A stretch of 32,000 bases of DNA, taken from the NCBI GenBank assembly GCA_963783945.1, contig CAWAPS010000005.1, forward strand, positions 444,500 to 476,499, given 5' to 3'. The DNA comes from an uncultured Actinomycetota bacterium (GTDB taxonomy: Bacteria > Actinomycetota > Acidimicrobiia > Acidimicrobiales > Palsa-688). Below, piece by piece: positions 5,069 through 30,289 of the stretch (position 1 is its first letter; every line of letters starts with the position of its first letter). Under the pieces are notes generated by a model. The model was not told the DNA's origin and made no database searches. It worked only from the letters and a program-made list of their open reading frames with translations. A program made the position numbers and the translations under genes.

Positions 5069-5507
5069 ATGACCCAGACGCTTTACACCGCGCAGGCAAC
5101 GGTCACTGGTGGACGCGACCGTGGTCACGGGGTAACGGGCGACGGGGCGCTGGACGTGCAGCTCCGAACGCCCAAAGAGATGGGAGGTGACGGAGGTGGT
5201 ACCAATCCCGAGCAGCTGTTCGCGGTCGGATATGCAGCCTGTTTCGAGGGGGCCTTGGGTGTCGTGGCGCGGCGTCGAGCGCGTCGAGCTCGGTGAGGTG
5301 TCCATCGATTCGCAGGTGAGCCTGATCACGACCGACACGCGGGGCTTCAACGTCGCAGTCGAGTTGAACGTTATCCTCCCAGGGATCGACGACCGGGCGC
5401 GGGCTGCGGAAATCGTCGCCGCTGCCCATCAGGTATGCCCGTACTCGAACGCGACACGCGGCAACGTGGAGGTCACCCTCACGGCCAACGGCGGACCCGT
5501 CAGCTGA
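5069..5507 (+). pseudogene. ohr: organic hydroperoxide resistance protein Ohr/OsmC family, split by a +1 frame change
   Basis: The N-terminal half lies in ORF 5069..5296 ([19 protein letters not shown], first catalytic Cys). The C-terminal half lies in ORF 5187..5507 (HQVCPYSNATRGN, second Cys). The frames switch around 5265-5295. AGGAGG precedes the ATG at 5069. Confidence 0.75.
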
Positions 5508-5885: not shown

Positions 5886-6989
5886 TCACCCGCCAGTGTG
5901 CGGTGGCGCCGCGGGTAGTTGCACGGTGACGCAGAGCCCGCCAGCGGCCCGGGGCGTTAGGGTGAGGGTTCCGTCGTGTGCTTCGGCGATGCTCTTGACG
6001 ATGGCCAGGCCGAGGCCGACACCTGCGTGATCAGCGCGTATGCGCTTGGAGCCGCGCTGGAACGGCTCGACGAGGGTGGCGACCAGCTGTGGGGTGAGCT
6101 TCTCGCCGGTGTTCTCGACCGTGAGCACCACGCTCTTGGACTGCACACCGGTGGTGACCCAGACCGTGCCCTGCTCGGGCAGGTTGTGGACGATGGCGTT
6201 GTGTCCGAGGTTCGTCGTCATCTGCAGCAGGAGCGGGTGTGAGCCGATGGCGGGGGTGATGTCGCCGGAGGTCTTGATGGTGATGCCGCGTTTTTCTGCC
6301 AGGGGGAGGAGCGTCTCGGTGGCTTGTTCGGCTATGAGGGACAGGTCGACGTGTTCTGGGGTGAAGGAGCGCTGGTCGGCGCGGCTGAGCAGGAGCAGTG
6401 TTTCGGTGAGGTCGATCGCTCGGGTGTTGACGGCGTGGAGGCGGTCGACCAGTTCGTCGTGGCTGCGGTTTTGATCGTTGCGGGCCACGTCGAGAAGGGT
6501 TTGCGTGATCGCCAAGGGGGTGCGCAGCTCGTGGGAGGCGTTGGCTGCGAATCTCTGCTGTTCGGCGCTGTGGGTTTCGAGCCGGGCGAGCATGGTGTCG
6601 AAGGCGTCGGCGAGTTCTCGGAACTCGTCGCGGCGGCCCGGTAGCCGGATGCGGTGGGAGAGCCTTCCGGCGGCGGCGATGCGGGTGGCGTCCGTGATGC
6701 GGGTCAGGGGGGCGAGCATGCGTCCGGCGAGAATCCATCCTCCCACGAGACCGAACACCAGCAGGAACGCCAGCACGATGGCCGCGACCGAGCCGAAGCC
6801 GTGCAGGGGGTCGGAGTCGTCCACTACGAACCACAACGAGGGATGCATGTGGGAGAGCGCACCGTCGGGTATGTAGCGCAGAACGACCACCCAAACGGCC
6901 GCGAGCATCAAGACACCAGCGAGCATGAGGAAGCCGGCGTAGCTGAGAGTAAGTTTGAGGCGAACACTCAAACCAGGGGCTCTATCCAC
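5886..6989 (-). CDS. vanS: VanS-type sensor histidine kinase
   Basis: GTG at 6989 overlaps the vanR stop (GTGGATAG). Two TM segments flank a ~28-aa loop. HAMP region, H-box FAANASHELRTPL, N-box HNAIVHN and G-box GVGLGLAIV are present. The 538-aa ORF-track model is an upstream shadow extension. Confidence 0.85.
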   Translation of the reverse strand: MDRAPGLSVRLKLTLSYAGFLMLAGVLMLAAVWVVVLRYIPDGALSHMHPSLWFVVDDSDPLHGFGSVAAIVLAFLLVFGLVGGWILAGRMLAPLTRITDATRIAAAGRLSHRIRLPGRRDEFRELADAFDTMLARLETHSAEQQRFAANASHELRTPLAITQTLLDVARNDQNRSHDELVDRLHAVNTRAIDLTETLLLLSRADQRSFTPEHVDLSLIAEQATETLLPLAEKRGITIKTSGDITPAIGSHPLLLQMTTNLGHNAIVHNLPEQGTVWVTTGVQSKSVVLTVENTGEKLTPQLVATLVEPFQRGSKRIRADHAGVGLGLAIVKSIAEAHDGTLTLTPRAAGGLCVTVQLPAAPPHTGG

Positions 6990-7683
6990 GGTCTCCTCCC
7001 TTATGCACGGTGTCAGGCTGAGTGTCGATGCGGTAGCCGACGCCGGCCACGGTGGCGATAATCCACGGTTCGCCGAGCCGTTTGCGCAGGGCCGAGACCG
7101 TGATGCGCACGGCGTTGGTGAACGGGTCTGCGTTCTTATCCCACGCCCGTTCGAGTAGCTCTTCCGCGCTGACGACACCGCCTTCGGCCGCGACGAGAAC
7201 TTCGAGCACGGCAAACTGCTTGCGGGTGAGGGCGACGTAGCGGCCGCCGCGGTAGACCTCGCGCCGGAACGGATCCAGACGCAGGCTTGCGATCTCTCGC
7301 ACGGGTGGCCTGTTGTGGGCCCGCCTGCGGTCGAGCGCTCTGAGCCGGAGGACGAGCTCTTGGAGCTCGAAGGGCTTGGTGAGGTAGTCGTCGGCCCCGA
7401 GTTCGAACCCGGAGGCCTTGTCGTCGAGCCGGTCGGCAGCGGTGAGCATGAGGATCGGCATGCCGCTGCCGGAGGCGACGATGCGTTTGGCGATCTCATC
7501 ACCGCTGGGTCCGGGGATGTCGCGGTCGAGGACGGCGATATCGTAGGCGTTGATGCTCAGCAGTTCGAGAGCGGTGTCGCCGTCACCGGCGATGTCGGCG
7601 GCGATGGCTTCCAGGCGGAGCCCATCGCGGATGGCTTCTGCCATGTAGGGCTCGTCCTCGACGATCAACACACGCACGCTCAC
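6982..7683 (-). CDS. vanR: VanR-type OmpR-family response regulator
   Basis: The receiver domain begins VRVLIVEDEPYMAEAIRDGL and carries the LDRDIPG aspartate pocket. The C-terminal winged helix ends GVGYRID. GTG starts are available at 7683 and 7677. The ATG at 7728 would add a non-homologous extension over the promoter block. Confidence 0.85.
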   Translation of the reverse strand: MSVRVLIVEDEPYMAEAIRDGLRLEAIAADIAGDGDTALELLSINAYDIAVLDRDIPGPSGDEIAKRIVASGSGMPILMLTAADRLDDKASGFELGADDYLTKPFELQELVLRLRALDRRRAHNRPPVREIASLRLDPFRREVYRGGRYVALTRKQFAVLEVLVAAEGGVVSAEELLERAWDKNADPFTNAVRITVSALRKRLGEPWIIATVAGVGYRIDTQPDTVHKGGDRG

Positions 7684-7692
7684 GCCATCGTA

Positions 7693-7773
7693 CGAGCCGG
7701 GGCATATCGTCGGCGTATCGAAAACCACATACGTGCTGGCAACCCCACGGTGGCTTGAATTTTGGGGCGTGAC
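7693..7773 (+). promoter_or_regulatory. copy 1 of a duplicated ~81-bp van promoter-like block (putative VanR boxes)
   Basis: About 66 of 82 hand-aligned positions are identical to 9529-9609. It contains CATATCG (7703), CGTATCG (7714) and CATACGT (7728), the first two 11 bp apart, followed by TTGAAT. Confidence 0.55.
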
Positions 7774-7821
7774 GTACCGCGGACCAGTACAGGTAGCAGC
7801 CGTAGGTGATGGACGATCCTC

Positions 7822-7986
7822 ATGGCTGTGTCAGTGGTCATCGCCGCTATCGTCGGGGCCGTCGGTGACCGGTGGTTGGCGGCCCTGTCGTCCTTGGCCG
7901 AGTCGCCCATCCGCATTCTTCACGGGGACCACCCCTTTGGCCTGGTGTGGCTGCCTGTGGCGTCCCTGACGGAGTATGCCCCCTGA
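7822..7986 (+). CDS. small hypothetical protein, 54 aa (below the ORF-track cutoff)
   Basis: ATG at 7822 with an in-frame TGA stop at 7807-7809 just upstream and a TGA stop at 7984-7986. Translation is MAVSVVIAAIVGAVGDRWLAALSSLAESPIRILHGDHPFGLVWLPVASLTEYAP. About 44 of 54 codons end in G/C by hand count. It lies about 50 bp downstream of promoter copy 1. Confidence 0.4.
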   Translation: MAVSVVIAAIVGAVGDRWLAALSSLAESPIRILHGDHPFGLVWLPVASLTEYAP

Positions 7987-8141
7987 GCCGCTCAGCGGCC
8001 GCTCTCGCGTCGCGCCCCGAATACGGCAGCCTTGACCGCGCCACGAACCAGGTGCGGTGTCGACGCCGACTGCCTGCTAAAGGAGTACCTCCATCCTGAG
8101 CGGCGGACGGCTCGGCGACCACCCGGCGGCGGAGGGGGCGG

Positions 8142-8469
8142 ATGGCTGTCCCGGTCCTGTATGTCGCCCTCGCCCTGCTCGTACTGTTCGTCGGAGCGTC
8201 CGTGTATGGAGGGGCCACCACGTGGGGGCAGCTGGTGTGCGTGGCACGTGGCCGGCCCGGCGCCGACGCCCGAGACGGCAGCCGAGTCGCTGCGGCGGGC
8301 CGGGGCGGTGCGGGGGATGACCCTCGACATCAACCCGGAATGGGTTACGTTCAACTTCTGCATCCGCCCCGACCCCGCCAACCCCACATCGATCACCGGG
8401 GGCCAAGCTGCATTCACGGACGCAGCGCTCGTCCGACCGGTATCTCACACCTACCGAGGAGTCCCGTGA
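8142..8469 (+). pseudogene. small membrane-anchored protein gene with an apparent +1 frame switch, or two very small ORFs
   Basis: GGAGGGGG lies 3 nt before the ATG at 8142, giving a clean TM helix (MAVPVLYVALALLVLFVGASVYGG). After about 8240 the protein-like, high-GC3 frame is the +1 frame (APTPETAAESLRRAGAVRGMTLDINPEWVTFNFCIRPDPANPTSITGGQAAFTDAALVRP, stop 8467-8469). Confidence 0.4.
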
Positions 8470-8503
8470 CTTCTTCTCCGTGTCCACCATCTGACCGTCC
8501 CGT

Positions 8504-9391
8504 ATGCCGGCCGTCACGCGGGCCGGGCTCATAGACCGGCCGGCGGCCAAACGGACGCTGCGGGGCGGTCCGGCCGGGGCCCGGCGGGTGCTGGTCCTGC
8601 TGGCAGTCATCGTGGCCGGGGCGGTGGCCGGCGGTGTGGCCCTCATCCAGGCCGCCTGGCACACGCCCACCACGCCGGCCGGCTGCCGGGTCCCGGCGCT
8701 CTCCGGTTCGGGTACCTTCAAACTGTCGACGGACCAAGCCCAGAATGCCACGATCATCGCCGCGGTGGCCTTCAAACTGGGCTTGCCCGACCACGCCGTC
8801 ACCGTCGGCCTGGCCACCGCCCTTCGGGAATCGCGCCTGGAGAACCTGACCTACGGGGACCTGGACTCGCTCGGGCTGTTCCAGCAGCGCCCGTCGCAGG
8901 GCTGGGGCACCCCGGCGCAGATCCTGGATCCGGTGTACGCCGCCACAGCCTTCTACCAGCACCTGGAGCGGGTGCCCGGCTGGGAGACCATGGCCGTCAC
9001 CGACGCCGCCCAGTCCGTCCAGCACAGCGCCACCCCGCTGGCCTACGCCCCCTACGAGACCGAGGCCCGAGCCGTGGCGGCGGCCCTGACCGGTGAGACG
9101 CCGGCCGCCTTCGACTGCCGGCTGGACGGTTTCTCCGGCGCCGCCCCAGCGGTGTCGGCCCTGCCCGCCGCCGCCGTCCGGGAGAGGGGCTCGACCCTGC
9201 TCGGGGCGCCGGTGAGCAGCCAGAAGGTGGGCTGGGCGCTGGCGTCGTGGGCGGTGGGCCACGCCTGGCGCTACCACGTGCAGGCGGTCACCTTCGGGAA
9301 CTGGCGGTGGACCGCGACCTCGGGCCGCTGGGTGAACACCCCGAGTGCGGTGGCCGCCTCGCCGGCCGTCCAAGTGGACTACGGGAGCTGA
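8504..9391 (+). CDS. conserved actinobacterial membrane-anchored protein of unknown function, with SLT-like motifs
   Basis: 295 aa with an N-terminal TM (VLVLLAVIVAGAVAGGVALI). The motif block is TALRESRLENLTYGDLDSLGLFQQRPSQGWGT ... AAQSVQHSATPLAYAPYE. The E-S ... GLFQQ pattern resembles lytic transglycosylase motifs. The start is uncertain (8504 ATG or an internal GTG). Confidence 0.7.
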   Translation: MPAVTRAGLIDRPAAKRTLRGGPAGARRVLVLLAVIVAGAVAGGVALIQAAWHTPTTPAGCRVPALSGSGTFKLSTDQAQNATIIAAVAFKLGLPDHAVTVGLATALRESRLENLTYGDLDSLGLFQQRPSQGWGTPAQILDPVYAATAFYQHLERVPGWETMAVTDAAQSVQHSATPLAYAPYETEARAVAAALTGETPAAFDCRLDGFSGAAPAVSALPAAAVRERGSTLLGAPVSSQKVGWALASWAVGHAWRYHVQAVTFGNWRWTATSGRWVNTPSAVAASPAVQVDYGS

Positions 9392-9528
9392 CCGGCCGGC
9401 GCCGATCTCCCCCGGGGGCGACCAGCCCGCGGCCACCTCGAACAGGATCTCCCTCCTGGTCGGCGTGGCTGTGCAGGCGGCTGCCGGGGACTAGGCCGCG
9501 AACCGGCCCGCAGATCAGCAGCCTGTCG

Positions 9529-9609
9529 AGCCGGGAACATATCGTCGGCATATCCAAAACCGCATACGTAGTGGCAACATCAGGTTGTCTTGACTTGGAG
9601 GCGTGACCT
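9529..9609 (+). promoter_or_regulatory. copy 2 of the duplicated van promoter-like block, upstream of vanH
   Basis: CATATCG (9540), CATATCC (9551) and CATACGT (9565), then TTGACT (9592). It has the same order and spacing as copy 1 and lies 116 nt upstream of the vanH ATG. Confidence 0.6.
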
Positions 9610-9725
9610 TCAGCCAACCAGCACCAACAGCAGCCTGCTGTGCCCGATCACTGGCGCCCTCGTCTTCATTGGCCGCATCCGACCACCATGGCGCACTTGG
9701 CGAGGCAGTCAGCGCCCCCCCGCGA

Positions 9726-10688
9726 ATGGGAGTCACCATCTATGGATGCGGGCAGGACGAGGCCGCCCTGTTCCGAGAGCTGGCGCCTCGCTTTGGCGTC
9801 GTGCCGACTGTCACCGACGCAGGGGTGTCTGCGGCCAATCTTGAGATCGCATCTGGAAATCGATGTATCAGCGTCGGACACAAGCACCGAATCACGAGCT
9901 CCATCCTCGTTGCGCTTCGCCAAGCCGGCGTGAGGTACATCTCGACGAGAAGCGTTGGGTACAACCACATCGACGTCGAGTGCGCGGAGAGCGTGGGGAT
10001 CTCCGTCGAGAACGTCTCCTATTCGCCCGACAGCGTCGCTGATTACACGCTGATGCTGATGCTCATGGCGGTGCGACATGCCAAGTCCACCGTCAGCCGT
10101 GCTCAGGCCCATGACTACCGATTGAACGACGTGCGTGGCAGAGAACTCCGCGATATGACCGTCGGCGTCGTCGGAACAGGACGCATCGGTGCAGCCGTCG
10201 TGGACCGACTGCGGGGCTTCGGCTGTCGCGTACTCGCCAATGACCGCTTTCCCAAGACCTCTGCCGAGTACGTGCCTCTCGATGAGCTGCTACAGCAGAG
10301 CGACATCGTCACGCTCCATACACCACTCAACGCGGACACCCACCATCTTCTGAATCGGCAACGGATCGAGCAGATGCGGCACGGCGCCTTCATCATCAAT
10401 ACCGGACGCGGTTCACTTCTCGATACAGACGCCCTTCTTGTCGGGCTGGAAGGCCGTCAACTCGGCGGGGCGGCGTTGGACGTCGTCGAAGGAGAGGAAG
10501 GCGTCTTCTACTCCGACCACAGACGGCAAACCATCGAAAGTCAACTGTTCCTGCGCCTGCAACGGTTGCCGAACGTGCTCATCACGCCGCACACCGCCTA
10601 CTACACAGATCACGCGCTGCACGACATCGTGGAATTGACGCTCATCAACTGCCTACGGGTTGAAAGACGAGCGGCATGGGTCGCTTGA
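9726..10688 (+). CDS. vanH: D-lactate dehydrogenase / D-specific 2-hydroxyacid dehydrogenase VanH
   Basis: Begins MGVTIYGCGQDEAALFRELAPRFGV. Contains YSPDSVADYTLMLMLMAVR, the NAD motif VGVVGTGRIGAAV, INTGRG and PNVLITPHTAYYT. It appears colinear with enterococcal VanH from memory. The 3' end overlaps the vanA start. Confidence 0.9.
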   Translation: MGVTIYGCGQDEAALFRELAPRFGVVPTVTDAGVSAANLEIASGNRCISVGHKHRITSSILVALRQAGVRYISTRSVGYNHIDVECAESVGISVENVSYSPDSVADYTLMLMLMAVRHAKSTVSRAQAHDYRLNDVRGRELRDMTVGVVGTGRIGAAVVDRLRGFGCRVLANDRFPKTSAEYVPLDELLQQSDIVTLHTPLNADTHHLLNRQRIEQMRHGAFIINTGRGSLLDTDALLVGLEGRQLGGAALDVVEGEEGVFYSDHRRQTIESQLFLRLQRLPNVLITPHTAYYTDHALHDIVELTLINCLRVERRAAWVA

Positions 10689-11710
10689 AGATCGCGATCC
10701 TCTTCGGAGGGACTTCCGAAGAGCATCCCATCTCCGTCAAATCTACGCAGGAGGTCGCAAGGCACCTCGACCTCGACAAGTACGAGCCGTTCTACATCGG
10801 GATCACGAGAGGTGGTGCCTGGCAGTTGTGTGACGGCCCAGACGCAGATTGGGAAACCCGCCGTTGCCCCCCGGCGATGTTGTCACCGGACAGAAGTGTG
10901 CACGGATTGCTCGTCCGCGAGCAAGGACAGTACAGAACGATCCCCCTGGACGTGGTGTTTCCCGTCCTGCACGGCAAACTTGGTGAGGATGGCGCAATGC
11001 AGGGCTTGTTGGAGCTCACCGGCATCCCCTACGTAGGCTGCGACGTCCAAAGCTCTGCGCTGTGCATGGACAAATCCCTTGCGTATGTCGTCGCGGGCAA
11101 CGTGGGGATTGCTACGCCGAGGTTCTGGACCGTCGCCGCGAACGGGCATGGTGATCCCGGTCGGCTGACATATCCCGTCTTCGTCAAGCCCGCTCGCTCC
11201 GGTTCATCGTTCGGGGTCAGCAAAGTGTGGCGAATGGAAGAACTCCCGAGCGCCGTGCAAGCCGCAAGGCAATACGACACAAAGGTGTTGATCGAAGAGG
11301 CGGTCGTCGGTAGCGAGGTGGGATGCGCGATCTCCGGGAACGAAGCGGAACTGATAGCGGGCGAGCCAGATCGAATTGTTCTGTCCCATGGGTTCTTCAG
11401 AATCCATCAGGAAGATCAGCCGGAAAACGGTTCCGAGAACGCCACATTTGTCGTGCCGGCCGACATCTCGGCAGAAGTGCGTCAGCTCATTCAGGAGACA
11501 GCAACAACCATCTATCGCGCCTTGGGATGCAGGGGACTGGCTCGAGTGGACCTGTTCCTGAAGGAAGACGGCGAGCTAGTACTCAACGAGGTCAACACGT
11601 TGCCGGGTCTGACCTCGTACAGTCGCTATCCGAGAATGATGGCAGCCGCCGGACTGTCGCTTGCCGAAGTGATCGACCGGATCGTGTCGTTGGCATTGAG
11701 CGGAAAGTGA
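10676..11710 (+). CDS. vanA: D-alanine--(R)-lactate ligase, VanA/VanB type
   Basis: MGRLKIAILFGGTSEEHPISVKS, KPARSGSSFGV, EVGCAI and the VanA-diagnostic FRIHQE...ENGSENA segment, followed by EVNTLPGLTSYSRYPRMMAAAG. Confidence 0.92.
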   Translation: MGRLKIAILFGGTSEEHPISVKSTQEVARHLDLDKYEPFYIGITRGGAWQLCDGPDADWETRRCPPAMLSPDRSVHGLLVREQGQYRTIPLDVVFPVLHGKLGEDGAMQGLLELTGIPYVGCDVQSSALCMDKSLAYVVAGNVGIATPRFWTVAANGHGDPGRLTYPVFVKPARSGSSFGVSKVWRMEELPSAVQAARQYDTKVLIEEAVVGSEVGCAISGNEAELIAGEPDRIVLSHGFFRIHQEDQPENGSENATFVVPADISAEVRQLIQETATTIYRALGCRGLARVDLFLKEDGELVLNEVNTLPGLTSYSRYPRMMAAAGLSLAEVIDRIVSLALSGK

Positions 11711-11712
11711 CG

Positions 11713-12321
11713 ATGCACGACGACTTTGTCTTTGTCGATGAGGTGATACCCGGCACACGTTGGGACGCGAAGTACGCCACCTGGGACAACTTCACCGGCA
11801 AGCCGGTGGATGGGTATCTAGCAAACCGCATCGTCGGCTCGCGAGCGTTGTGTGCCGCCCTGGAAGTGGTGCGAGACCGCGCCACGTCCCTTGGCTTCGG
11901 CTTGCTGATTTGGGATGGGTACCGCCCGCAGCCCGCCGTAGACTGCTTTCTTCGCTGGTCGGAACAGCCCGAGGATGGCCAGACGAAGCCACGGCACTAT
12001 CCGAACATCGACAGATCCGAGATGTTCGAGAAGGGATATGTGGCCGCCAAGTCAGGTCACAGTCGGGGCAGTTCCGTCGACTTGACGCTCTACCAGTTGG
12101 CAACCGGTGAACTTGCTCCGATGGGCAGTCGCCATGACCTAATGGATCCAGTCTCACACCATGGTGCTGAGGGAATCACGCAGTGCGAAGCGAGAAACCG
12201 ACAAGTCCTCTGCTCGATGATGGAGGCCAGCGGCTTTCATCGATACGACTGTGAGTGGTGGCATTATACCCTCAGCGAGGAACCGTATCCGGACACCTAT
12301 TTCGATTTCCCCATCGTCTAG
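11713..12321 (+). CDS. vanX: D-Ala-D-Ala dipeptidase VanX
   Basis: ATG 2 nt after the vanA stop. Contains RWDAKYATWDNFTGKPVDGY, WDGYRP, the zinc-site SGHSRGSSVDLTL, EWWHY and YFDFP. Confidence 0.9.
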   Translation: MHDDFVFVDEVIPGTRWDAKYATWDNFTGKPVDGYLANRIVGSRALCAALEVVRDRATSLGFGLLIWDGYRPQPAVDCFLRWSEQPEDGQTKPRHYPNIDRSEMFEKGYVAAKSGHSRGSSVDLTLYQLATGELAPMGSRHDLMDPVSHHGAEGITQCEARNRQVLCSMMEASGFHRYDCEWWHYTLSEEPYPDTYFDFPIV

Positions 12322-12483: not shown

Positions 12484-13053
12484 TTCGCAGCTGCCCTAGC
12501 TGCGGCCCGGCTGATCATCGACGCGCAGGACTCCCCAGTCGTGCTTGTCGGCCACTCCTACGGCGGCGCCGTCATCAGCGAGGCAGGAACCGACCAGAAG
12601 GTGGCGGCCCTGGTCTACATCTGCGCGTTCGCGCCGGACAGGGACGAGTCGGTCAACACGCTTATCGCCGGTTTCCCGGCCGACGGGCCGCAGCCGCCGA
12701 TCCTGCCGCCCCGGGACGGCTTCCTGTTCCTGGACCGGAACAAATTCCACGCATCCTTCGCCGCCGACGTACCTGCCGACTTGGCCGCGTTCATGGCCGA
12801 CTCGCAGGTCCCATGGGGCCTGGAGGCCCTCGGCGGCCCGGTCACCGACCCCGCGTGGCGGACGAAGCCGAGCTGGTACATGGTCACGGCCGACGACCGA
12901 ATGATCCCTCCGACGGCCCAACGCACCATGTCCCAGCGGGCTGGGTCGACCGTGGTGGAGGTGGCGGCCAGTCACTCCGTTTACGTATCGCAACCGGCCG
13001 CCGTGGCGGACCTCATCAAGCAGGCCGCGTCCGCGGTCGCCGCGCAGCAGTAG
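12484..13053 (+). pseudogene. alpha/beta hydrolase lacking its 5' portion
   Basis: The frame opens only after a TAG at 12481-12483. The sequence starts mid-domain (LAAARLIIDAQDSPVVLVGHSYGG, the nucleophile elbow). The oxyanion-loop region expected about 60-70 aa upstream is absent, and no start codon or RBS precedes it. Confidence 0.65.
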
Positions 13054-13238
13054 TCGCGGAACCTGACCTTCCTGTTTCCGGGGCAGGGGCGGCGGCCAAG
13101 CCATCCAGTTCAGCCGTCGGGTCGTGGGCCGTCGGCCTGGCTCGTACGAGCCGGCTTCGCGCCGCGCAACCCGGAGTGGGACTGCGGTCGGCGTGGGCTG
13201 GATGCCACCGACCCGCAAGTTGGCAAGCTCAGCGGCTT

Positions 13239-13544
13239 ATGGACCGACTGAGGGGATGCACGCGCCGCCTCGACGAGGTGCACGTCTTCGAGCGCTTTGA
13301 TGAACGCGTCGGCGCAGCTGAGTTCGGGACCTACTTCATCGGTTACGCTCGCAACCTCGAGGTGATTGAGAAGATGATAAAGAACATGTTCATCAGCAAA
13401 TGGCCCGGCAATTACGACCGGATCCTCGACTGCTCGATGCCGCTCACCGGCAACCTGTTCTTCGTTCCCACCGCCGATTTCCCTCGACGACCAACCCCAA
13501 TCGCGGCTATCGCAGCCGGCGTCGATCGCATCAGGAGGAGCTAG
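13239..13544 (+). pseudogene. C-terminal fragment of a DyP-type peroxidase
   Basis: EFGTYFIGYARNLEVIEKMIKNMFISKWPGNYDRILDCSMPLTGNLFFVPTADF matches the conserved C-terminal block of B-type DyPs. About 200 upstream residues are missing. Confidence 0.5.
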
Positions 13545-16021: not shown

Positions 16022-16777
16022 CTACGGCGTGGGCGGCCGGAGTGAGCCGGTTTGTGGGCTCTGACCCGTGTCGACGAGGGCTTGGGCCACGTCGCGGATT
16101 CTGGTGTTGAGGTGTTGGGACGCTCGGCGCAGGATCTCGTAGGCCTGGTCGGCGGTGATGTGTTCGCGCTCCATCAGGATCCCTTGGGCCTGGCCGATCA
16201 TCTCCCGGGTGGCCAGCGCCCCCTGGATGGTGTCGCGCATCTCGTCTTCGTGAGCCTCGGCCGCGGTGAGGGCCAGGCCGGCCATGGCCGCGAGGATCAC
16301 GCCCTTGGCCCGGTCCAAAGCGCCGAAAGCGCGGGGATAGTGGGCGTAGAGAATGAGGGCGGCGCCCCGACTGGCGTCGTCGGATAGGCGCAACGCCAGG
16401 GCGCTGCGCACCCCCGCCTTGGCTGCGTCGGGCCCGAAGGACACCCAGCGGGGATCGTCGGCCAGGTCCTCGGCGTAGACCGTTCCGCCTTGATTGATGG
16501 CGTCGAGGCCGGGGCCCTCCCCGGCCTGGTGCTGGACCACGTCGACTCCGGCCGCCACCGAGTCGGTCCCCACCGGGGTGGCAGCGCTGTTGGTGTCGAT
16601 GACGAAGATGCTGGCAAAGTCACAGCCGTCGATGGTCTCCACCGCCAGGTCCACCACCGCTCGCAAGGTGTCAGCGGGGTTGCCGGCCGAGAACAGGGCC
16701 TGGGCCGTCTCCGAGAAGCTGGCCGTGAGCTCCGAACTGCGGTCGTCCGCGCTGGTGGGATGCTCGCCAGTAGTCAT
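16022..16777 (-). CDS. GAF-ANTAR domain RNA-binding regulator
   Basis: Internal ATG at 16777 preceded by GAGGA. GAF-like core, then ANTAR helices (ALATREMIGQAQGILMEREHITADQAYEILRRASQHLNTRIRDVAQALV). Confidence 0.85.
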   Translation of the reverse strand: MTTGEHPTSADDRSSELTASFSETAQALFSAGNPADTLRAVVDLAVETIDGCDFASIFVIDTNSAATPVGTDSVAAGVDVVQHQAGEGPGLDAINQGGTVYAEDLADDPRWVSFGPDAAKAGVRSALALRLSDDASRGAALILYAHYPRAFGALDRAKGVILAAMAGLALTAAEAHEDEMRDTIQGALATREMIGQAQGILMEREHITADQAYEILRRASQHLNTRIRDVAQALVDTGQSPQTGSLRPPTP

Positions 16778-17280
16778 AGGTCCTCGATCCGCGGATGTCT
16801 GGGATCGAACTCTATCGAGGGTCAGCGAATCGTCAACCGCCCGAGCCGGCACACCTCAACGGCGACATCACCGCCACGGCCACCCAAACCTGAGAAACGA
16901 AGCCGGACAAGCGATCTGCAGGGCTGACACCAGTTGACCGCCCAGACGGACCATGCCGATCGACGGCCCGGGCGTGACCGTCCGGTCGGGGCTTTGGCTC
17001 CGAACGTGCGCTCATGAAACTGTCGTCGGCGACACATCCAAACTGTCTCGAAAGGCCCGCTCACAGACCGGAGTGTTATGGCAGCCCCTCTTCGAAGCGC
17101 GTTCGTGACTCGTGTTAGACAGTCTTGAGGGGGATGCGGGTGCGGGCATTGCTGGCCGGGTGTAGTGTGTTTCCGGCACGGTGAATCCCGGTCGTGTTGG
17201 GTCAGCTTCGGCTGGCCCGGGAGCGATGCTCCGGACCCTGGTAGCGCGTGATTGGCAGCGCCTAATGCCAGGAGAGTCCT

Positions 17281-20822: not shown

Positions 20823-21563
20823 TCAGGGCCGGGCCGTCGGGGTGGTAGGGGCCCATGCGGCGGGATCGAGGGTGCCGTCGATCGAGGCTTGGGCGACATC
20901 GGTAAGACGCAGATTGTGGTTCCGGGCGTAACGCCGTAAACGGGAGAACGCTTCGGCCAAGTCGACGCCGGCCCGTTCAGCCATCACGCCTTTCGCTTGC
21001 TCGATCACGACACGGCTCTCCAGGGCGCGGGTGAGCTGTTCGTTGACGCGTTGGGTTTCGAGCACGGCCCGGTGCTGAACGATGCCTATGGTAGCCAGGT
21101 CGGCGAACGCTTGGGCCACGACCACGTCGGCGTCGTCCATGGGGGCCTCCTCGACCGCGAACAGGTTCAGGGCGCCGATGGTTGCGTGCCGCAGCCGCAG
21201 CGGCAGCGCGAAGACCGAGCCGAAGCCGGCCTCTAAAGCAGCCGCCGAGAACCGGGGCCAGCGGCCGGTACCGGCGCGCAGGTTCTCATGTTCGATGCGC
21301 TGGCCGGTATGGAAGGCGTCCAGGCAGGGGCCTTCGTCGGCCTGCAGCTCGAACAGTTCCAGGATCCGCATGGCCTCGTTGGATGAGGCCATCAACCGCA
21401 ACTCACCGTCGGGGGAGGCCAGCATCACTCCGGCTGCGGACACGCCGAGCAGCTTCACACAGCGGTCTGCCAGGCCGGTGAGTAGCTCCACCACGTCGAA
21501 GTCTTCCACCAGGGTGTCGGCTAGCTCGACGAGCATCTGCACGACGGAGGACTCTCGGGTCAT
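20823..21563 (-). CDS. GAF-ANTAR domain RNA-binding regulator
   Basis: AAGGAGGG lies before the ATG. GAF core (EGPCLDAFHTGQ), then ANTAR (ALESRVVIEQAKGVMAERAGVDLAEAFSRLRRYARNHNLRLTDVAQ). Confidence 0.85.
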   Translation of the reverse strand: MTRESSVVQMLVELADTLVEDFDVVELLTGLADRCVKLLGVSAAGVMLASPDGELRLMASSNEAMRILELFELQADEGPCLDAFHTGQRIEHENLRAGTGRWPRFSAAALEAGFGSVFALPLRLRHATIGALNLFAVEEAPMDDADVVVAQAFADLATIGIVQHRAVLETQRVNEQLTRALESRVVIEQAKGVMAERAGVDLAEAFSRLRRYARNHNLRLTDVAQASIDGTLDPAAWAPTTPTARP

Positions 21564-21686: not shown

Positions 21687-22382
21687 TCATGAGAACCGCA
21701 GCGTGCGGTCCACGACCTCTTGGGCCACGTCGTGGAGCAGGCGATCGTGGCTGAACGCGTACGCTCGTAGATGGATGAGTGCTTCGCCGACACTCACCCC
21801 TAGCTGGACGGCCACCATGCCGGCGGCGTTGTGCACCACGAAGCGGAAGTCGGCGCCGAACTCCAATTCCCTGGCCAACCCGCCCGGGGGTGCCGCGGCT
21901 TGGACGTCGAGCACCCAACGGGCGGCGACGTCGGCCATTACCAACGCGTCGGCGTGCTGGCCGTCGCTCAAGGGTCCGGGCCGGTCCCGATACAAGTTCA
22001 AGGCGCCGAGGCGGACAGTGCCCACCCGCAGCGGGAACCCGAAGACGGCCCGCGCTCCCGCCTCTACCGCCGGTGGCGTGAAGGCCAACCAGCGAGGGCT
22101 GGCAGGGTCAGCCAGGTCGGGCTCGAGCACCACGTCGTTGTACCGGTAAGCGTCCACGCACGGACCCTCACCCAGGGTGAACTGCAACTCCTCGATCAGG
22201 TTGCTCACCTGGTTTGTCGAGCACAACGATCCCCGGGGTATCTCGCCCGACATCAACATGACCCCTGTGCCCGTGATACCGATGACATGTGCGCCCACCT
22301 CGCACAGCCGAGCCGCCGCCGGCCGGCCGTCGTCACCCGCGGACAGTTCATCCAAGATACGCCGCAGCCGCTCACCCGCCAT
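21687..22382 (-). CDS. GAF-ANTAR domain RNA-binding regulator
   Basis: GAF core (GEGPCVDAYRYND, FGFPLRVGTVRLGALNLY), then an ANTAR-like C-terminus (VVHNAAGMVAVQLGVSVGEALIHLRAYAFSHDRLLHDVAQEVV). Confidence 0.8.
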   Translation of the reverse strand: MAGERLRRILDELSAGDDGRPAAARLCEVGAHVIGITGTGVMLMSGEIPRGSLCSTNQVSNLIEELQFTLGEGPCVDAYRYNDVVLEPDLADPASPRWLAFTPPAVEAGARAVFGFPLRVGTVRLGALNLYRDRPGPLSDGQHADALVMADVAARWVLDVQAAAPPGGLARELEFGADFRFVVHNAAGMVAVQLGVSVGEALIHLRAYAFSHDRLLHDVAQEVVDRTLRFS

Positions 22383-29305: not shown

Positions 29306-30289
29306 TCAGGCGTCGGGCGGGCTGGTCGATTGGACCCACGCTTGGCGCAGGGAGGCCGGTATCCGACCTCGATTGGGGATGTCCAGGCCGTGGCGTCGAG
29401 CCCAGTCTCGGATCTCGGCCGGGGAGGGATCGCTCTGGCGTTGTGGGACGGACCTCAAGTTCGGCTCATGGCCGATTCGCTCTATTGCTGCGGGTTCGGT
29501 GGAGACCCAGGCATGGGCGGCGGCCAGGTAGCGGTAGGTCCATTCCTCCGCCAGGCTCCGGGTGTCGCAGAACACGATGGGAATGTTGGGCCAGCGGACC
29601 TGGCATTCGGCGATCCCATCGGCGACTAGGGAGGGTCGGACCCGGTCTTGCTTGTAGATCTGCGAGTAGCGGTCCTCGACCACGACGGCGGCGCGGGGCA
29701 GGGCGGCCAGTTCGCCGAGGGCGTAGCGGAGCCGGCCGCTGGTGAGGCTGGCGATCAGGTCGGGCACGGACTTCCGTTCCACCGCGGCGACGAGCACTCC
29801 GTCGAGGATGATCCCGTAGTCGCCGCAGGGCAGGCTTCGGGTGGTCGTGCGCACCTGCTGGCCGGCGAAGTGGTAAGCGTAACGTTCGTGGGCGTCGACG
29901 ACGATCTCGAGCTCTGTGATGCCGGCGGCCCGGGCGGTGGGCAGGTTGACCTGAGGGCGGGCCTGTTTACGGGTGCGGGGGGACTGCCAGAACACCGCGT
30001 TCCGACCCCGGGCGGTGGTGAAGACCAGCTGCGAGCGGTTCTCTCTGGCTCGGGCGGCGACGATGTCAATGGCCGCCCCCCGACGGGCGCAGGAGCGCAG
30101 CGGCACCCGTTCCACGATGTCCGGATCACGTGGCCACTCTTCGGCCGGGACCGGGTAGCAGTAGAGGGCTTTGGTACGGGGCCAGGTTCCGGCAGTGCGC
30201 AAGACGATCCCTTCGCCCAGCGGCACCCGGAGCAGATAGGCGAGGGTGGAGTCCGGATGGGGGTTGGTGGCGATGATTAGTTCTTGCAC
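29306..30289 (-). CDS. ERCC4/XPF-type nuclease domain fused to an Lsr2-type C-terminal DNA-binding domain
   Basis: EIVVDAHERYAY ... LPCGDYGIILDGVLVAAVERKSVPDLIASLTSGRLRYALGELAALPRAAVVVED matches the GDY...ERK ERCC4 signature. The C-terminus PSPAEIRDWARRHGLDIPNRGRIPASLRQAW matches the Lsr2 RGR-hook domain (compare [26 protein letters not shown]). The N-terminal ~130 aa are unassigned. GTG start with no Shine-Dalgarno. Confidence 0.8.
   Translation of the reverse strand: MQELIIATNPHPDSTLAYLLRVPLGEGIVLRTAGTWPRTKALYCYPVPAEEWPRDPDIVERVPLRSCARRGAAIDIVAARARENRSQLVFTTARGRNAVFWQSPRTRKQARPQVNLPTARAAGITELEIVVDAHERYAYHFAGQQVRTTTRSLPCGDYGIILDGVLVAAVERKSVPDLIASLTSGRLRYALGELAALPRAAVVVEDRYSQIYKQDRVRPSLVADGIAECQVRWPNIPIVFCDTRSLAEEWTYRYLAAAHAWVSTEPAAIERIGHEPNLRSVPQRQSDPSPAEIRDWARRHGLDIPNRGRIPASLRQAWVQSTSPPDA

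Follow-up and report, generated by a model that had tools for sequence, protein, structure and literature searches.

A canonical glycopeptide-resistance (van) cluster with a gene for a predicted cell-wall hydrolase in its accessory position is carried by the 32,000-nt stretch of DNA from an uncultured soil bacterium of the Actinomycetota that was analysed in this work (referred to as the window). The sequence identifies the locus as a genuine actinobacterial cluster comprising vanRS and vanHAX, and between vanR and vanH lies a gene whose 295-aa product is related to the muramidases of the GH184 family. The explanation that we favour, with somewhat more confidence than doubt, is that this gene is controlled by VanR and serves as the accessory gene of an otherwise ordinary van cluster. 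In the literature searched no paper was found on a pairing of vanHAX with a muramidase, and the combination of a van cluster with a GH184 muramidase-like gene is plausibly new, adding one well-supported candidate to the van accessory genes.

The glycopeptide-resistance cluster had been recognized in a first-pass annotation made from the letters alone, and this reading of the core genes (Table 1) stands, with both the ligase and VanX exceeding the cut-offs of their NCBIfam equivalog models. With the D-alanine--(R)-lactate ligase model NF000206 (cut-off 550) the ligase reached 606.8 bits, far more than with the Ddl models (at most 340 bits), and it is 78-80% identical to proteins annotated as VanA-Sc; a grouping with the housekeeping Ddl enzymes, which the annotation had named as the outcome that would speak against it, was thus not obtained, and the ligase sides with the D-Ala-D-Lac family. 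VanX reaches 390.5 bits against NF033115 (cut-off 320). The FRIHQE segment of the ligase and the SGHSRG motif of VanX, both noticed earlier, were found in the translations, the latter as SGHSRGSSVD together with CEWWH (zinc and catalytic motifs). VanH narrowly missed the cut-off of the vanH_gen model (528.9 bits against 540) when an N-terminally extended open reading frame (ORF) was scored, and the start given in Table 1 agrees with the public gene call. The VanR proteins adjoining vanHAX in dozens of actinobacterial loci share 85-95% identity with that of the window. The mapped junctions also agree with the annotation: on the minus strand the GTG start of vanS (6989) overlaps the TAG stop of vanR (6982-6984) by 8 nt, while on the plus strand vanH is directly upstream of the ligase gene with an overlap of 13 nt, and a gap of 2 nt separates the ligase stop codon from the vanX start. 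The spacer between vanR and vanH, put at about 1.9 kb, measures 2,042 nt.

The 295-aa protein encoded in this spacer had been described as membrane-anchored and of unknown function, which can be corrected, since the sequence profile, the predicted fold and the conserved Glu, Asp and Ser residues assign it to GH184 as a membrane-anchored muramidase-like enzyme with a predicted activity. Neither Pfam nor NCBIfam gave a match to it; its homologs number more than 6,000, and those few that carry an organism name come from metagenome-assembled genomes (MAGs) of Acidimicrobiales. A profile built from 48 homologs and run by hmmsearch against PDB retrieved the fungal GH184 structures at E of about 3e-17 (2.7e-17 for 8b2h and 3.7e-17 for 8b2e). 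The AlphaFold2 model, with a predicted local distance difference test (pLDDT) score of 88, was compared with GH184 structures by Foldseek and gave template modelling (TM) scores of 0.81 and 0.79 with root mean square deviations of 1.1 and 1.9 Å, the closer match (TM 0.81, 1.1 Å) being 8b2e. In KsGH184 the catalytic residue is Glu41, with Asp66 and Ser69 nearby (PMC10394673); E109, D119 and S122 of the window protein align to these three residues and are invariant in the 48 homologs, so that the catalytic Glu is kept. Bacterial members of GH184 are mentioned in the same paper, which left them unstudied.

A transmembrane anchor (residues 27-52) is followed in this protein by the catalytic domain (about 59-195) and by a conserved C-terminal domain of about 100 residues (about 196-295), for which no match was found. 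The N-terminal helix of the model is preceded by a basic stretch, for which reason the enzyme domain should face outward. The ratio of nonsynonymous to synonymous substitution (dN/dS) of the gene, 0.25-0.39, indicates purifying selection. The catalytic domain shares 48-56% identity with parts of tape-measure proteins from actinophages and of NlpC/P60 proteins encoded on plasmids, and its recurrence in tape-measure and wall-hydrolase proteins fits a role in wall cleavage. Several hundred phages of Mycobacterium, Streptomyces and Gordonia carry a GH184-like catalytic domain within their tape-measure proteins, and about 400 actinomycete plasmids encode NlpC/P60 proteins that have one at the N-terminus.

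Membership of the muramidase gene in the van regulon is suggested by a promoter cassette and by gene position. Actinobacterial van loci share a conserved cassette of about 100 nt with the direct repeats CATATCG-N4-[CG][AG]TATCG-...-CATACG. In all 46 loci (46/46) the distance of its box from the vanR start is 15-20 nt and the box is directed away from vanR, and a cassette is found upstream of vanH in 46 of 63. The window holds two copies, 76% identical over 110 nt and 81% over 59 nt. In the first the box is 19 nt from the vanR start, and the rightward core behind it is similar to the vanH promoter; in the second the box is placed 188 nt upstream of the ATG of vanH. The VanR-box motif occurs exactly twice in the 32 kb, both times rightward, against 0.04 occurrences expected. 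Compact clusters have a single cassette between vanR and vanH (e.g. L027), and in other loci the gene right after the vanR-side cassette encodes a VanY, VanK or VanJ-like protein, which puts the muramidase gene of the window in the usual accessory position. According to one paper the VanR binding motif was not determinable experimentally, and the cassette therefore offers a concrete candidate for the VanR operator of actinomycetes.

Whether homologs of the 295-aa protein are van-linked elsewhere had been raised by the first-pass annotation, and they are so in L003, L004, L007, L169 and L172. All van-linked GH184 copies belong to one 7-member subclade, in which six lineages have the gene beside vanR or vanS, in two gene orders. 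The arrangement of the window is shared by L001 and L002. The L003 locus consists of vanSR, the GH184 gene, the vanH cassette and a fragment of vanX (92% identity to the vanX of the window); in L004 and L169 vanR stands beside the GH184 gene and vanHAX has been lost, and in L007 and L172 the order vanR-vanS-GH184-cassette-vanHAX occupies a single strand. The flanking genes differ among these loci, hence the van-GH184 unit appears to travel together. It may have been captured once, with later losses, or more than once.

Several observations weigh against VanR control of the muramidase gene. In L003 and L169 the rightward core of the vanR-side cassette is degraded. In the window this cassette and the gene are about 700 nt apart, with orphan sequence and a pseudogene in between, and vanH has its own cassette, separated from the muramidase gene by a GC-rich hairpin that is a possible terminator or processing site. 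Scans of 7600-9800 for sigma-70 promoters and for terminators, T-tract terminators included, found none. No GH184 gene was found within 10 kb in any of 80 van loci surveyed in species-representative genomes of other species (0/80). Van genes were likewise missing from 80 more distant, metagenomic GH184 loci (38-65% identity; 0/80), so that van function does not in general depend on the enzyme. The 9-kb contig of L006, a locus that falls within the linked subclade, is free of van genes, and the GH184 gene persists in L004 and L169 after the loss of vanHAX, which suits a housekeeping role.

A housekeeping wall enzyme gene with expression signals of its own, placed in the spacer by rearrangement or insertion and taking no part in the glycopeptide response, would account for such retention, for a family almost all of whose members are without van neighbours, and for the hairpin and separate vanH promoter 3′ of the gene. 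It would also agree with the GC content at third codon positions (GC3), which is 0.93 in the GH184 gene, unlike 0.82 in vanSR and 0.71 in vanHAX (host genes about 0.80), and with the L171 locus, where the GH184 gene is the second of a NAGPA-GH184 pair that has no van genes. We nevertheless find this explanation rather unlikely. The adjacency to vanR or vanS recurs across the six lineages with different flanks, the gene of the window lies downstream of an intact cassette, where other clusters have vanY, vanK or vanJ, and van genes on both flanks are hard to reach by chance.

A different view would take VanRS and the muramidase as a native envelope-stress module, with control of the wall hydrolase as the main task of VanRS in this lineage, to which vanHAX, with its VanR-dependent promoters, was added later and possibly repeatedly. 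The vanR-GH184 pairs without vanHAX (L004, L169) and the GC3 of the window vanHAX, lying under the host level, are in its favour, and so is the finding that the GH184 genes of the window and L007 belong to one subclade and their VanHAX to different sublineages, being sisters in 0/100 bootstraps of neighbour-joining trees, which, built on few markers, are weak evidence. L003, however, retains the vanH cassette and the vanX fragment, so that at least some of the loci devoid of vanHAX are decay products, and the VanR involved has the identity to VanR of ordinary van clusters given above. We regard a native module as distinctly improbable, and VanR control of a gene in the accessory position of a canonical cluster is the reading followed below.

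Table 1. Features of the van cluster and of the vanR-vanH interval, in window coordinates.
Feature	Coordinates	Strand	Basis or remark
vanS, sensor histidine kinase, 367 aa	5886..6989	-	two transmembrane segments, then HAMP, HisKA, HATPase_c (Pfam)
vanR, OmpR-family response regulator, 233 aa	6982..7683	-	Response_reg and Trans_reg_C (Pfam)
van promoter cassette, copy 1	7691..7801	+	VanR-box direct repeats CATATCGTCGGCGTATCGAAAACCACATACG at 7703-7733
54-codon orphan ORF	7822..7986	+	inside the 340-nt stretch 7802-8141; unsupported as a gene
NAGPA-like phosphodiester-glycosidase gene remnant	8142..8490	+	tblastn with intact L171 protein
GH184-family muramidase-like gene, 295 aa	8504..9391	+	profile, AlphaFold2, Foldseek, invariant residues
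GC-rich stem-loop region	9345..9440	+	spans muramidase stop codon; minimum free energy -55.2 kcal/mol, z = -2.56 against shuffles
van promoter cassette, copy 2	9527..9635	+	VanR box 9538-9568, upstream of vanH
vanH, D-lactate dehydrogenase, 320 aa	9726..10688	+	2-Hacid_dh and 2-Hacid_dh_C (Pfam)
D-Ala-D-Lac ligase gene, VanA-Sc-like, 344 aa	10676..11710	+	NF000206 equivalog
vanX, D-Ala-D-Ala dipeptidase, 202 aa	11713..12321	+	NF033115 equivalog

The interval had been credited with three accessory ORFs co-oriented with vanHAX. All three are open frames on the plus strand, but support as a gene was obtained for the muramidase frame only, the other two being an orphan and a remnant. The 54-codon ORF (GC3 0.82) matched only itself among 1.84 billion representatives, and no similarity to it was found in any fetched locus; with neither homolog nor conservation, its reading as a real small gene was dropped. 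The 340-nt stretch around it is confined to the strain group of the window and has a coding-like GC periodicity, and no homolog was detected at the nucleotide or protein level. A larger segment of the window, about 7753-8290, is missing from the close relatives L003, L004 and L169. Its interpretation as a mobile-element insertion was rejected, as terminal repeats and other copies were not found and part of the segment is explained by the gene remnant described next.

The second frame (8142-8534), previously called as a small transmembrane protein gene, is by sequence comparison an internally deleted and frameshifted remnant (pseudogene) of a NAGPA-like gene. In L171 an intact NAGPA-family gene lies directly upstream of the GH184 gene, and its 419-aa product matches PF09992 (31.3 bits, cut-off 25). 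In tblastn residues 333-391 of this protein match 8230-8406 with 63% identity, residues 379-418 match 8369-8488 with 52% identity in a different frame, and the transmembrane-like start at 8142 resembles the N-terminal transmembrane segment (11/19, E = 1e-4). The assignment as a remnant is based on this split of the C-terminal match over two frames and on the transmembrane match: an N-terminal piece (frame 3) is fused to the C-terminal 85 codons or so (frames 1 and 2), the deletion amounting to about 265 codons. The public gene call on a near-identical contig chooses another frame here. Third-position changes in the 3′ stretch point to past coding constraint. A conserved RNA leader or riboswitch at 8300-8503 had been considered in view of conservation with indels that are not multiples of three and a possible long-range stem; there was no Rfam match, and the idea was dropped because this segment is the decayed 3′ end of the NAGPA-like gene that is intact in L171.

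In L003 (7521-8723) the NAGPA remnant has lost its stop codon and shares one open frame with the muramidase gene that follows, the predicted product having 400 aa. A second case of a NAGPA-like gene near van genes was met in an Actinomycetes MAG (L069, 5565-6800, minus strand), about 2.4 kb from vanH, its product being 36% identical to the protein left as a remnant in the window. Upstream of vanS, an OsmC-like gene (5069-5507) is broken into two frames in the window and forms one 145-aa ORF in the near-identical contig L001; the split reflects either a frameshift of recent date or an indel error of the assembly, and the latter possibility advises caution against over-reading frameshifts of the window.

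The order of events under the favoured explanation would be as follows. VanS would sense the drug and phosphorylate VanR, which would then bind the direct-repeat box of the promoter cassette, and VanH, the D-Ala-D-Lac ligase and VanX would reprogram the peptidoglycan precursors. The vanR-vanH interval would represent a fragment of a two-gene cell-wall operon with its NAGPA-like first gene decayed and its second, GH184, gene intact, and the latter would be switched on by VanR together with vanHAX. The muramidase may then cut glycan strands, so that wall material is remodelled or cleared during the changeover to D-Lac precursors. A further step, which we propose tentatively and hold to be unlikely as matters stand, would be that the glycopeptide response of this lineage includes, as a functional component, a muramidase anchored in the membrane and induced by VanR. 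Such an enzyme could remove un-crosslinked D-Ala-D-Ala glycan strands to which the drug is bound while the cell switches to D-Lac, or could restore wall cleavage when peptidoglycan-coating glycopeptides block the autolysins. In that case wall hydrolases would join the van accessory resistance genes as a new class.

The accessory van genes vanY, vanK, vanJ, vanZ, vanW, murG and orf2 represent other adjustments for survival under glycopeptides, and a hydrolase of peptidoglycan glycan strands was not among the van accessory genes in the surveys and papers searched. If the muramidase gene is controlled by VanR, precursor reprogramming would be linked to active wall cleavage, and there would be a physiological context in which the bacterial GH184 enzymes could be tested. 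With this locus vanHAX is also recorded among probable relatives of Acidimicrobiales; a survey of actinobacteria from 2021 reported no van-like genes in 216 genomes of this order. The placement is probable in that the signal peptidase of the window has Acidimicrobiales MAGs as its only named relatives (60-63% identity). Elsewhere in the window three genes for GAF-ANTAR regulators and one for a fusion of an ERCC4 nuclease with an Lsr2 DNA-binding domain were noted (16022-16852, 20823-21563, 21687-22382 and 29306-30289).

The companions of van genes listed in the 2021 survey are vanY, vanJ, vanK, vanZ, murF, murG, GNAT and orf2. The vanR-vanH interval of the window has no match to FemAB/vanK, EEP/vanJ, VanY, murF or murG and also differs from the orf2/murG of vanO, in line with the first-pass annotation, by which its content was none of the described accessory genes. 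The closest parallel in layout is vanRSJKHAX of Streptomyces coelicolor, which is expressed as four VanR-dependent transcription units (PMC4790382) and shares with the window cluster the divergent vanSR and vanHAX, the accessory genes placed between them and a VanA-Sc-like ligase; the cassette type of the window is found in the Streptomyces loci L016 and L020 as well. In contrast to S. coelicolor, the window cluster is devoid of vanJ (EEP) and vanK (FemAB), and the accessory position is taken by the GH184 gene, the decayed NAGPA-like gene and the orphan ORF.

A second relative is the vanO operon of Rhodococcus equi (Gudeta 2014; described in PMC8698665 and PMC12278488). The best NCBIfam models for vanS and vanR of the window are VanS-O (504.5 bits, cut-off 720) and VanR-O (466.7 bits, cut-off 505), which like VanO (594.5 bits, cut-off 750) stay below their cut-offs, and vanO resembles the window cluster in having extra ORFs of unclear role. 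The 295-aa gene was considered as a homolog of vanO orf2 and rejected as such: vanO-type loci of Rhodococcus and Williamsia show no similarity to the GH184 gene, and their orf2 and murG follow vanX (L017). Downstream of vanX in the window are fragments of hydrolase and peroxidase genes instead of orf2 or murG. At 12541-13544 an alpha/beta-hydrolase gene truncated at its 5′ end covers positions 70-216 of a 217-position profile, and a Dyp-type peroxidase is represented by a C-terminal fragment (109-165 of 166); the place of these fragments directly after vanX suggests an insertion or deletion scar at the cluster edge.

At the level of the enzyme, the window protein resembles the fungal KsGH184 and TtGH184 (8b2e, 8b2h; PMC10394673) in the sequence and predicted fold of the catalytic domain and in the equivalents of Glu41, Asp66 and Ser69. 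It differs from them in being bacterial and membrane-anchored, in lacking the SH3-like wall-binding domain and in carrying the additional C-terminal domain. The related phage and plasmid hydrolase domains are built into large tail proteins or two-domain proteins of conjugation type, whereas the window protein stands alone, anchored in the membrane and encoded within a resistance cluster.

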